Source: Escherichia coli (GTDB lineage: Bacteria > Pseudomonadota > Gammaproteobacteria > Enterobacterales > Enterobacteriaceae). From it: a DNA stretch of 64,000 bases. Position numbers and translations under genes: made by a program. Of the stretch, positions 13,447-19,864 are shown piece after piece. The stretch lies in assembly GCF_003018255.1 (NCBI RefSeq), contig NZ_CP027440.1; one strand, given 5' to 3'. Positions within the stretch are counted from its first letter, which is position 1, and each line of letters opens with the position of its first letter. The notes under the pieces were generated by a model that saw nothing but the letters and a program-made list of their open reading frames with translations, did not search any database and was not told where the DNA came from.

Positions 13447-13454
13447 GGTTGTCA

Positions 13455-13480
13455 AAGGGAGCTGCGGCTCCCTTTTTATT
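13455..13480 (+). terminator. rho-independent terminator after emrB
   Basis: Stem GGGAGC / GCTCCC with loop TGCG, followed by TTTTT. Confidence 0.7.
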
Positions 13481-13703
13481 TGCTCATTTTGCAAACGGTT
13501 GTTTTATCCACTCATTCGGTGTATCTTTTCGCCGCCCCAAACTCTTCCATTCACCATTAACCGGTTCTGAGCATTCGCTCAGGTTGTTAATTCTCTTTTT
13601 CTTTCGCCCTCGCTTTCGCGGGTGATACTCACATTTTTCTTTTAACCCCATAACTCGCACCCTCGCGGGCGTACATTTATTACACACAAAATAATGGATT
13701 ATT

Positions 13704-14411
13704 ATGAATACCCAACGAAAATACGGGAGAACCTGGCATTATCCTTTCTCCCCCGGCACCACCAGCGATGACCGCATTAATGCCGATTACTGGCAGGATT
13801 TACAGGCCATCACGCAATTGGTGCACACAGAAAAACTCGACGGTGAAAATAACTGCCTTAACCGCTACGGCGTGTTTGCCCGTTCCCATGCCGCGCCTAC
13901 GCAGTCGGCATGGACCTATAAAATTCGCCAACGCTGGCAACTGCTGAAAAACGATCTCGGCGATCTGGAGTTGTTTGGTGAAAATCTTTATGCCGTGCAT
14001 TCGATTGAATATCGCGCCCTGGAGCAGGATTTTTATCTGTTTGCCGTTCGCTGCCAGGATATGTGGCTGAGCTGGGAAGAGGTGCAGTTTTACGCCGCTC
14101 TGTTTGATTTCCCCTGCGTTCCCGAAATCTCCGGCCCGCAACCGGGGAATGATGAAAAAAGCTGGCAACGTGATTTTCTGGCGCTGACCAATGCGCGCGG
14201 CGCGTTCGATCCCTGGGATACGCAAACCGGGCAACCCTGTACGCTGGAAGGCATTGTCAGCAGGAATCGTGATGCGTTTTCCGTCGCTGACTTTTCGCAT
14301 AACGTCTTCAAGTATGTGCGCAAAAATCATGTCAAAATCACCGTCCACTGGAAACGACACTGGCAACGGGCGCGGATGGCCCATGAGTTCGATTATGGAG
14401 AACAGTCATGA
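13704..14411 (+). CDS. putative ATP-dependent polynucleotide (RNA) ligase-like nucleotidyltransferase
   Basis: 235-aa ORF; motif I KLDGEN (K44, nt 13833-13850), motif III LFGEN (about residue 91), motif IV EGIVSR (182-187), motif [10 protein letters not shown] (203-211), in ligase order and Rnl2-like spacing; call rests on motif reading only. Confidence 0.62.
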
Positions 14412-15520
14412 TTTGGCAGCTTACCGACGACAAACGCTGGTCGGCGCTACGTCAGCGTTTTAGCTGGGTTGAGGAGATGCATCACACGCCACAAGACCCG
14501 GAGCATCATGGTGAAGGTGACGTCGGCGTGCATACCGAAATGGTGCTGAACGCCCTCGTTACTCAGCCAGAATTCCAGCAACTCCCCGCTCAACAGCAGG
14601 AAGTTTTATGGGCGGCGGCGTTATTGCATGATGTTGAAAAGCGCAGCACTACCGTGCAGGAAAACGGACGTATTCAGTCGCCTGGCCATGCTCGTCGGGG
14701 CGAACTGACGGCCCGACAAATTTTATGGCGCGATATCCCAACGCCGTTCGTGCTACGCGAGCAAATTGTTGCGCTGGTGCGTCTGCATGGGTTACCGCTA
14801 TGGTTACTGGAACGTCCGGAACCGGAGCGTTTGCTGCTCACGGCTGCAATGCGCATCGACACGCGTCTGCTCGCTTTGCTTGCTCGTGCCGATCTGCTTG
14901 GTCGCCAAAGCCCGGATCAGCAATCAATGCTGGAACGCATCGATCTGTTCGAGCTGTTTTGCCATGAGCAACAATGCTGGGGAAAAATGCGCCCGTTCGT
15001 TTCTGATTCCGCACGCTGGCACTACCTGACTCATGAGCAAAGTTCTCCTGATTTTGTTCCCTGGGAGGCTGAACCTTTTGAGGTTATTTTGCTGTGTGGC
15101 TTACCGGGTATGGGCAAAGATCGCTATATCAGTGAACAGTGCCAGGGAATGGACGTTATCAGCCTTGATGATATGCGGCGGCGAATCAATGCCAGTCCGG
15201 ACGACAAAACCGCCACCGGGCGTATTGTGCAACAGGCAAAAGAAGAGGCGCGCGTTTTTTTACGCCAGAAAAAGCCGTTCATCTGGAATGCAACGAACAT
15301 TACCCGCCAGCTGCGCAGCCAGCTCATCAGTCTGTTTACGGCTTACGGCGCACGAGTAAAAATCGTTTATCTGGAAGTGCCATGGGCGCAATGGAAGCAG
15401 CAAAATGCCAGACGCGAGTATGCAGTTCCTGAAGCGGTCGTGATGCGGATGGCCTCAAGGCTGGAAGTTCCTCAACCTGATGAAGCACATAGCGTGGAAT
15501 ATCGGATGACTGACAGGTAA
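14408..15520 (+). CDS. putative bifunctional HD-domain phosphoesterase / P-loop polynucleotide kinase (HD-Pnk-like end-healing enzyme)
   Basis: 370-aa ORF whose ATG overlaps upstream stop (ATGA); N-terminal His cluster H33-H34, H42 and HD dyad H74-D75; C-terminal Walker A-like GLPGMGKD (nt 15098-15121); domain assignment by motif only. Confidence 0.6.
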
Positions 15521-15525
15521 CAAAA

Positions 15526-15552
15526 GCCGGGCGGTGTTTTCACCAGCCCGGC
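15526..15552 (-). terminator. rho-independent terminator at luxS 3' end (possibly bidirectional)
   Basis: Stem GCCGGGC / GCCCGGC around a 13-nt loop; on the minus strand followed by TTTTG; lies between convergent ORF 14408-15520 and luxS. Confidence 0.65.
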
Positions 15553-16154: not shown

Positions 16155-16227
16155 TGAAAGACGCGCATTTGTTATCATCATCCCTGAATTCAGAGATGAA
16201 ATTTTGGCCACTCACGAGTGGCCTTTT
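16155..16227 (+). ncRNA. micA: MicA (SraD) small regulatory RNA
   Basis: Matches remembered MicA sequence GAAAGACGCGCAUUUGUUAUCAUCAUCCCUGAAUUCAGAGAUGAAAUUUUGGCCACUCACGAGUGGCCUUUUU; divergent from luxS; 3' hairpin plus U-run. Confidence 0.85.
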
Positions 16228-18857: not shown

Positions 18858-19004
18858 GGTCTTCTCGCAAGTCGAAAAATATGACGCTACTTTAGCGTAA
18901 TTGCTTGATTTTGTCGCTGATGGAGAAGGAGAAGAAAATTCAGGAAATGGATAAAGTAGTTATTTAGAAATGAGATATTTTTGAAGGAAATTTTTTGGAG
19001 AAGA

Positions 19005-19137
19005 TGGTGCATCCGGGAGGATGACTCACTGGCGTTCGCCCTTCGGGCCGCTGCTGGCGCAACGTTATCCTCCCTGGTGCCTGCGGTTAATACCGCTACC
19101 TCTTCGATACCTTCATTGCTGAAGGTTACGGAGAATA
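19005..19137 (-). repeat. tRNA-Arg 3'-end-derived hairpin repeat (pseudo-tRNA fragment), copy 1
   Basis: Plus strand begins with the 17-nt tRNA-Arg 3' end incl. CCA (TGGTGCATCCGGGAGGA) then diverges into GGGAGGAT...ATCCTCCC inverted repeat; about 90% identical to copy at 19558-19691. Confidence 0.7.
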
Positions 19138-19214
19138 TGGTGCATCCGGGAGGATTCGAACCTCCGACCGCTCGGTTCGTAGCCGAGTACTCTATCCAGC
19201 TGAGCTACGGATGC
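19138..19214 (-). tRNA. argQ: tRNA-Arg (anticodon ACG)
   Basis: 77 nt; reverse complement matches remembered E. coli tRNA-Arg(ACG) incl. CCA; gene name by position is tentative. Confidence 0.9.
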
Positions 19215-19277
19215 ATTGGGAAAATTTATTTTACTGCTGATATTGATATCGCTACTAAAGCCATATCAAGTAAGAGA

Positions 19278-19354
19278 TGGTGCATCCGGGAGGATTCGAA
19301 CCTCCGACCGCTCGGTTCGTAGCCGAGTACTCTATCCAGCTGAGCTACGGATGC
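19278..19354 (-). tRNA. argZ: tRNA-Arg (anticodon ACG)
   Basis: Identical 77-nt copy; name by position tentative. Confidence 0.9.
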
Positions 19355-19416
19355 ATCGGGAAATTTATTTTACTGCTGATATTGATACCGCTACTAAAGC
19401 CATATCAAGTAAGAGA

Positions 19417-19493
19417 TGGTGCATCCGGGAGGATTCGAACCTCCGACCGCTCGGTTCGTAGCCGAGTACTCTATCCAGCTGAGCTACGGATGC
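19417..19493 (-). tRNA. argY: tRNA-Arg (anticodon ACG)
   Basis: Identical 77-nt copy; name by position tentative. Confidence 0.9.
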
Positions 19494-19557
19494 ATCTGGA
19501 AACTTACTTTACTGCAGATTTTTTGATACCGCTACTAAAGCCGTATCAAGTAAGAGA

Positions 19558-19691
19558 TGGTGCATCCGGGAGGATTACTCGCCTTGCGGCTCGCCCTTCG
19601 GGCCGTTGCTAAAGCAACGTTATCCTCCCTGGTGCCTGCGGTTATTACCGCCACCTCTTCCATACCTTCATCGCTGAAGGTACGTAGAATA
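19558..19691 (-). repeat. tRNA-Arg 3'-end-derived hairpin repeat (pseudo-tRNA fragment), copy 2
   Basis: Starts with TGGTGCATCCGGGAGGATT then diverges; same inverted-repeat core (cgcccttcgggcc ... atcctccc) as copy 1. Confidence 0.7.
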
Positions 19692-19768
19692 TGGTGCATC
19701 CGGGAGGATTCGAACCTCCGACCGCTCGGTTCGTAGCCGAGTACTCTATCCAGCTGAGCTACGGATGC
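19692..19768 (-). tRNA. argV: tRNA-Arg (anticodon ACG)
   Basis: Identical 77-nt copy; name by position tentative. Confidence 0.9.
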
Positions 19769-19771
19769 AAA

Positions 19772-19864
19772 TGGCGGTGAGGCGGGGATTCGAACCCCGG
19801 ATGCAGCTTTTGACCGCATACTCCCTTAGCAGGGGAGCGCCTTCAGCCTCTCGGCCACCTCACC
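19772..19864 (-). tRNA. serV: tRNA-Ser (anticodon GCU)
   Basis: 93 nt; reverse complement matches remembered tRNA-Ser(GCU) with long variable arm and CCA. Confidence 0.88.

Follow-up and report, generated by a model that had tools for sequence, protein, structure and literature searches.

An Escherichia coli member of the HD-Pnk family, encoded with an RNA-ligase-like partner between emrB and luxS, carries aspartate in its P-loop

The HD-Pnk family has been known since 2017. In Runella slithyformis, the HD-Pnk protein (Munir and Shuman 2017), described as an active kinase, is encoded in a cluster of MTase-HIT, Tpt1, ligase and HD-Pnk genes, in which the ligase open reading frame (ORF) overlaps the HD-Pnk ORF (PMC6097658). 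Blasius et al. (PMC1997131) studied a protein of the same make-up from Deinococcus radiodurans, DR_B0098, which joins an HD domain and a kinase. Here, we analysed a stretch of 64,000 nucleotides of Escherichia coli DNA (assembly GCF_003018255.1, contig NZ_CP027440.1; hereafter the window), in which two overlapping ORFs form a cassette between emrB and luxS. With a probability that we put at roughly 85%, the second of them, ORF2, is an HD-Pnk bifunctional end-healing enzyme and the first, ORF1, is its dedicated ATP-dependent ligase-like partner. ORF2 is an E. coli member of a known family, the one after which DR_B0098 was later named. What goes beyond routine annotation is a compensated swap of Walker residues in the kinase site and the natural occurrence of E. 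coli strains with the cassette, without it or with a null ligase.

The genes and domains under study are the following.

13704-14411, plus strand: ORF1, an RNA-ligase-like nucleotidyltransferase-domain protein of 235 amino acids (Pfam RNA_ligase PF09414, E=4e-28).
14408-15520, plus strand: ORF2, HD-Pnk, 370 amino acids, ATG start, stop codon included.
ORF2 residues ~1-205: HD phosphoesterase domain, on profile, fold and conservation evidence.
ORF2 residues ~225-367: P-loop polynucleotide kinase domain, on sequence, profile and fold matches.

ORF1 and ORF2 overlap by 4 nucleotides (ATGA, 14408-14411), the ATG of ORF2 running into the stop codon of ORF1. A preliminary description of this DNA had delimited ORF2 correctly in its coordinates and residue numbering, and had placed H33, H34, H42 and the dyad H74-D75 at the right residues. 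ORF2 is a real gene, as judged from its thousands of homologues, from a ratio of non-synonymous to synonymous substitution rates (dN/dS) of 0.09-0.12 within E. coli, and from an AlphaFold2 model with a mean predicted local distance difference test score (pLDDT) of 97.5. The dN/dS of the ligase gene within E. coli is 0.04-0.08, and purifying selection acts on both cassette genes. RefSeq labels the same ORF2 'ATP-binding protein' in identical E. coli genomes.

The alignment of ORF2 with DR_B0098 is collinear and runs from end to end; across its 394 columns the identity is 29% (E=5e-33). The Runella comparison was made with the congener R. zeae, standing in for R. slithyformis: when residues 5-178 of RslTpt1 (PDB 7kw8) were used as query on genome contigs, the best match (64%) was in R. 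zeae, whose row of genes for MTase-HIT, Tpt1, a 238-amino-acid ligase and a 368-amino-acid HD-Pnk is the cluster type described for R. slithyformis. The R. zeae HD-Pnk is 49% identical to ORF2. This full-length homology to both proteins agrees with the earlier proposal that the order of HD domain and then kinase fits bacterial HD-Pnk rather than T4 Pnk, and the assignment is further backed by the ligase gene overlapping the start of ORF2, as in Runella (PMC6097658). The enzymatic activities of ORF2 are accordingly predicted ones, carried over from its Runella and Deinococcus homologues. ORF2 lies outside the T4-type Pnkp class, its order being phosphoesterase then kinase and its phosphoesterase being of the HD and not of the HAD type. 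It also lies outside the Pnkp-Hen1 class: TIGR04075 reaches 32.9 bits where its cut-off is 750, with the kinase region alone matching, and no Hen1-like gene was found among the neighbours of ORF2. As a separate observation on R. zeae, a 371-amino-acid ORF with an HNH-like motif, recognised by eye, lies directly upstream of MTase-HIT on the same strand (locus L005, 8011-9126) and may be a fifth member of that cluster.

We then considered the identity of the kinase domain. Pfam returns AAA_33 at residues 226-355 (E=7e-32), a generic match that would also suit a small-molecule kinase of the gluconate, shikimate or PFK-2 type, with the HD domain as a nucleotide phosphohydrolase and a metabolic role for the protein. 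The PFK-2 kinase domain and gluconate kinase are indeed among the weaker structural matches. However, the top matches by sequence, profile and fold are polynucleotide or tRNA kinases. A single-sequence search of the PDB matched the CthPnk kinase domain, T4 Pnk and PSTK, and a family profile built from 143 sequences matched PSTK at 1e-17, CthPnk at 2e-15, T4 Pnk at 3e-13, a fungal RNA kinase at 2e-9 and mammalian PNKP at 6e-8, with PFK-2 many orders weaker, at 6e-5 or worse. Foldseek with the ORF2 model places CthPnk, mammalian PNKP, fungal RNA kinases and T4 Pnk on top and gluconate kinase at rank 50. On the kinase side, the best NCBIfam matches are bacterial Pnkp (kinase region only) and PSTK, far below the family cut-offs.

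To score conservation, 144 sequences were aligned: 141 representatives at 50% identity, together with the proteins of E. coli, D. radiodurans and R. zeae. Two kinase elements stand out.

15167-15178, plus strand: D-x-x-R motif D254-D-M-R257, aligned to CthPnk 38-DFCR-41.
15413-15415, plus strand: R336, the predicted lid arginine to the gamma-phosphate, R in 138/144.

D254 and R257 each occur in 141 of the 144 sequences, T296 corresponds to CthPnk Thr80, and K237, D254, R257, T296, R303 and R336 are nearly invariant; loss of the P-loop lysine in orthologues, named in advance as an outcome that would count against the kinase, is thus not seen. By analogy with the roles described for the D-x-x-R residues of CthPnk (PMC3902929), D254 would be the general base for the 5'-OH and R257 would bind the first phosphodiester. 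R336 probably corresponds, from its sequence context, to T4 Pnk R126 and to DRB0098 R371, the rationale for the latter being given in PMC1997131. The conserved Pnk-specific D-x-x-R and acceptor-phosphodiester Thr, together with the invariable coupling of the HD-Pnk gene to a ligase gene, argue further against a small-molecule kinase, which we regard as highly improbable; the polynucleotide kinase assignment of the preliminary description therefore holds.

The kinase site departs from the textbook P-loop at two positions.

15098-15121, plus strand: P-loop G231-LPGMGK237-D238, non-canonical, with Asp at the residue after the lysine (K+1).
15287-15298, plus strand: N294-A-T-N297, equivalent to Walker B with Asn for Asp, aligned to CthPnk V-V-D-A-T-N.

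The first had been located exactly (GLPGMGKD, G231 to K237-D238, 14408 + 3x230 = nucleotide 15098, end 15121), and its non-canonical Asp is real. CthPnk cannot do without its Walker-A Ser (Ser22), the one residue of the protein that coordinates the catalytic Mg2+ (PMC3902929). According to Kozlova et al., the K+1 Ser/Thr and the Walker-B Asp form a strictly conserved hydrogen-bonded pair, and only Gly substitutions in nucleoside monophosphate kinases are given as common exceptions (PMC9599734). With D238 and N294 at these positions, ORF2 fails the canonical definition of a Walker-A P-loop NTPase.

The conservation of GK-D in orthologues was checked, and it is the majority state of the family. 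The K+1 residue is D or N in all of the ~209 full-length close homologues in which the motif was found; across the 144 sequences it is D in 112, S in 22, N in 5, T in 3 and E in 2. Positions 238 and 294 vary together: D+N occurs in 109 sequences and S/T+D in 19, Asp at both occurs in none, and the sole pair acidic at both positions is one E+D sequence. GKD is paired with N-A-T-N and GK[S/T] with D-A-T-N. Exactly one acidic residue at the two positions is found in 133/144 sequences, a number reached in 0 of 10,000 permutations. The S/T+D state appears in ~15 separate clades of a rough neighbour-joining tree, and the D. radiodurans HD-Pnk is a canonical GKS member. N294 is the C-terminal end of the beta-strand 291-294 in the AlphaFold2 model. 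In these sequences, it appears that the P-loop has taken over from the Walker-B strand as the source of the active-site carboxylate, with Asn keeping the hydrogen bond.

A different interpretation would be that GK-D marks a dead or repurposed kinase that binds nucleotide or nucleic acid only, ORF2 being effectively an HD phosphoesterase. The strict conservation and essential nature ascribed to the K+1 Ser/Thr and the Walker-B Asp (PMC9599734), and the requirement for Ser22 in CthPnk (PMC3902929), speak for it. Nevertheless, the near-invariance of K237, D254, R257, T296, R303 and R336 is unexpected in a dead domain, the reciprocal covariation of D/N with S/T-D indicates selection for one carboxylate in the site, and the Runella enzyme, whose congeners are all GK-D, was published as an active kinase (PMC6097658). 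We therefore hold the loss of kinase function to be quite improbable. As the catalytic residues are nearly invariant and GK-D is present in all Runella relatives, the GK-D kinase domain is most likely active. As for the reading of GK-D as a hint of altered catalysis, Asn at Walker B and GK-D as the family norm point to a site that is rearranged but working, the one change being offset by the other, and not to an oddity of E. coli. If the exchange is correctly read, HD-Pnk enzymes would be a natural swap experiment for the P-loop catalytic model, and the Walker-A/Walker-B swap poses a compact question of enzymology on the positioning of Mg2+ and protons in P-loop kinases.

The N-terminal half of ORF2 carries the signature of an HD phosphoesterase.

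14627-14632, plus strand: HD dyad H74-D75 within LLHDVEK; H74 in 142/144 and D75 in 143/144.

The motif L[LM]HD[VI]EK is present in nearly all close homologues, and each of H34, H42, H74, D75, H94, H127 and D162 is either invariant in the family alignment or conserved to at least 90%. The dyad noted at the outset is thus kept across the aligned orthologues, which removes the objection that it might not be conserved. Of the His cluster proposed with it, H34 and H42 are conserved, but H33 is not (H, Y, W or F in the family). The HD region of CCA-adding enzyme and HDIG are among the best NCBIfam matches of ORF2, far below the family cut-offs, and the N-terminal half of the family profile matches the HD region of the Aquifex A-adding enzyme at 5e-13 and also an HD hydrolase. 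The HD domain of Cca has Ni2+-dependent 2',3'-cyclic phosphodiesterase and phosphatase activity.

ORF1 is 35% identical to D. radiodurans DRB0100 and 58% identical to the R. zeae ligase. The nucleotidyltransferase motifs, EK44xDGxN among them, are invariant across 48 homologues, in which the invariant residues include E43, K44, D46, G47, N49, R60, E93, E182, G183, K203 and R206, and K44 in EKLDGEN is the predicted AMP-accepting lysine. The ORF1 model has a pLDDT of 88; its nearest folds are Naegleria Rnl5, T4 Rnl2, archaeal Rnl3 and the ligase domain of fungal Trl1. These structural relatives rest on fold comparison, the informative route here. PDB sequence matches of ORF1 to hemocyanin repeats and to a designed repeat protein were spurious summed hits and were discarded. 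The protein is stand-alone, without an OB domain or other nucleic-acid-binding domain.

The pairing of the ligase and HD-Pnk genes was found in 10 other genera, including Citrobacter, Salmonella and Deinococcus. In Citrobacter amalonaticus, the cassette occupies the same emrB-luxS site. Providencia, Pragia, Enterobacillus, Xenorhabdus and Serratia have the same two-gene unit at unrelated sites, and in Pseudomonas and Variovorax the pair is carried on plasmids. In Serratia (loci L087 and L088, 3520-7116), genes for rtcB (370 amino acids), a prfH-like member of the RF-1 family (205 amino acids), the RNA ligase and HD-Pnk follow head to tail on one strand, with overlaps or gaps of ~50 nucleotides, so that two different RNA-repair routes are apparently joined in one operon. 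This linkage of rtcB and a prfH-like gene to the ligase/HD-Pnk pair was seen in Serratia and in no other sampled genus. The rtcB and prfH module was shown to rescue and repair ribosomes damaged by colicin E3 (PMC9304027, PMC9223846), and its union with a ligase/HD-Pnk pair goes unmentioned in the one PrfH paper searched. Among the PADLOC defence models, none matched ORF1 or ORF2 at E<=0.01. We also observed, on the P. aeruginosa plasmid p4782_002 (locus L093, 743-8509), a more distant ligase/HD-Pnk pair of ~35% identity, which is bracketed by two identical copies of IS21 (istA/istB) and looks like a composite transposon.

Of 5426 complete E. coli genomes, ~999 (~18%) have the 1.8-kb cassette, each as a single chromosomal copy; carriers include E2348/69, Nissle 1917 and ATCC 25922. 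K-12 lacks it, and its emrB-luxS gap is 63 bp. No mobility genes flank the E. coli cassette. In Nissle 1917, ATCC 25922 and the uropathogenic E. coli strain UPEC 26-1, the cassette match is 1807 nucleotides long instead of 1817, i.e. 10 nucleotides shorter. Several large E. coli protein clusters (P0024, P0036, P0053, P0057 and others) consist of truncated HD-Pnk variants, and one such cluster, of 216 member sequences, holds a form of 252 amino acids whose reading frame is lost shortly ahead of the P-loop; these variants may be lineage pseudogenes, or artefacts of assembly or contig ends. That an intact cassette is kept under purifying selection in roughly a fifth of the complete E. coli genomes, the tractable E2348/69 among them, is of practical value.

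From these data, we propose how the cassette would act. The break to be healed would have a 5'-OH on one side and, on the other, a 2',3'-cyclic phosphate or else a phosphate at the 3' or 2' position. The HD domain, through a metal site formed by H42, H74, D75, H94, H127 and D162 and probably filled by a transition metal, would hydrolyse the 3'-terminal phosphate to leave 2'-OH/3'-OH. The kinase domain would transfer the gamma-phosphate of a nucleoside triphosphate (NTP) to the 5'-OH, with K237 and Mg2+ stabilising the transition state, D254 as the general base, R257 and T296 holding the first phosphodiester, and R336 as the lid arginine. Asp238 and Asn294 would replace the Walker-A Ser/Thr and the Walker-B Asp, and the site should stay active, since one carboxylate and one hydrogen-bonding partner would still lie next to the Mg2+-NTP. 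The healed 3'-OH/5'-PO4 ends would presumably be passed to the ORF1 ligase, with K44 as AMP acceptor.

That RNA rather than DNA is the main target, and that the healed ends are handed to the ligase, we infer. The cassette might instead heal DNA breaks with 3'-phosphate and 5'-OH ends, from oxidative or radiation damage, as proposed for DRB0098-DRB0100. ORF2 is homologous over its full length to DR_B0098 and ORF1 to DRB0100, the DRB0098-DRB0100 operon is radiation-induced, and DRB0098 phosphorylates DNA 5'-OH ends (PMC1997131). However, ORF1 belongs to the RNA-ligase branch (PF09414, with Rnl5, Rnl2 and Rnl3 as its nearest folds), the informative neighbours of the module are RNA-repair genes (Tpt1 in the Runella cluster, rtcB and the prfH-like gene in Serratia), and for the HD domain the best match is with the HD region of tRNA CCA-adding enzymes. 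For the first two of these reasons RNA is favoured as the target, and DNA repair as the role of the cassette is in our judgement unlikely, though clearly less so than the loss of kinase function or a metabolic role. The substrates of HD-Pnk enzymes include DNA as well as RNA ends.

Several points weigh against an RNA end-healing enzyme working with a ligase. The single-sequence Pfam match to HD is weak (E=0.021), and the NCBIfam HDIG match is below its cut-off. The activity of a GK-D enzyme is deduced from R. zeae and all sampled Spirosomaceae homologues. In Nissle 1917 (locus L095, 601-1298), the ligase is annotated as frameshifted and HD-Pnk is intact. The Deinococcus module was tied to DNA damage, not RNA damage (PMC1997131), and the DRB0100 and Runella ligases form ligase-AMP but sealed no tested substrate (PMC1997131; PMC6097658). 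The module is widespread. ORF1 may need unusual ends such as a 2'-phosphate; if it seals 2'-phosphate ends, E. coli KptA/Tpt1 would gain a bacterial substrate. With the ligase frameshifted and HD-Pnk intact in some B2 strains, HD-Pnk may also work without the ligase, and the same observation suggests that the sealing half of the cassette is decaying in part of phylogroup B2. Genotypes with presence, absence and partial loss, among which Nissle 1917 and ATCC 25922 are natural ligase-frameshift variants, lend themselves to tests of function, for example in survival after RNA cleavage triggered by colicin, contact-dependent inhibition (CDI) or phage.

The surroundings of the cassette define its edges. 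The gene order in the window is emrR, emrA and emrB (plus strand, to 13446), the two overlapping plus-strand ORFs, luxS, MicA and gshA, and homology between the window and K-12 stops right after the emrB stop codon and restarts just before the luxS stop codon.

13454-13475, plus strand: terminator-like hairpin with a 9-bp stem and then a T run, directly 3' of the emrB stop codon.
13476-13703, plus strand: non-coding region upstream in the cassette, ~230 nucleotides, including a hairpin at 13566-13583.
15526-15552, no strand assigned: GC-rich inverted repeat GCCGGGC...GCCCGGC between the ORF2 and luxS stop codons.

The sequence at the 13454-13475 hairpin is already unlike K-12 and thus marks the left edge of the inserted segment. 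The upstream region with its hairpin is ~80% conserved between E. coli and Citrobacter. A sigma-70 scan of 13476-13703 gave no convincing consensus match upstream of ORF1, and Rfam gave no match over the cassette, upstream region included, its only match being MicA, downstream. The inverted repeat is followed by TTTT on the minus strand, and K-12 homology resumes just past it; it is probably the luxS terminator and perhaps the terminator of the cassette too. The MicA small RNA lies at 16156-16227, between luxS and gshA as in K-12 (Rfam, 83.9 bits). Farther along, at 18981-19820, repeated ORF translations containing IQLSYG are typical of a tandem tRNA cluster read as protein, which may be the serV-argV region downstream of yqaB.

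Compared with the described systems, ORF2 resembles the R. slithyformis HD-Pnk in its N-terminal HD phosphoesterase domain, its C-terminal P-loop 5'-OH kinase domain and its upstream, overlapping ligase ORF. The R. zeae HD-Pnk carries GLPGSGKD where E. coli has GLPGMGKD. Unlike the Runella cluster, the E. coli cassette has two genes only, without an adjacent Tpt1 or MTase-HIT. With D. radiodurans, it shares the HD-Pnk architecture and a ligase partner reduced to the adenylyltransferase domain; however, the Deinococcus protein has GPSGSGKS and D-A-T-T in place of GK-D and N-A-T-N, and the macro-like gene between ligase and HD-Pnk, the megaplasmid location and the link to radiation and DNA damage are features of D. 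radiodurans and not of the E. coli cassette. For the HD domain, the class II CCA-adding enzymes (E. coli Cca; Aquifex A-adding enzyme, 3wfo/3wfp) are the best sequence and fold match, over residues ~11-190, and the motif Q-D-P-x-H-H-x-E-G-D-V-x-x-H is common to both; unlike them, ORF2 has no nucleotidyltransferase head and its HD domain is fused to a kinase instead. Among solved structures, CthPnk and T4 Pnk come nearest to the kinase domain; they share with ORF2 the lysine of the P-loop, the D-x-x-R motif, the Thr that binds the acceptor and the arginine of the lid, but they have the kinase first and Ser at K+1, whereas ORF2 has the kinase last and Asp at K+1. The phosphatase modules are unrelated, being a binuclear metallophosphoesterase in Pnkp, a DxDxT acylphosphatase in T4 Pnk and an HD domain in ORF2, and while Pnkp has its own ligase domain and pairs with Hen1, the ligase of ORF2 is encoded by a separate gene.

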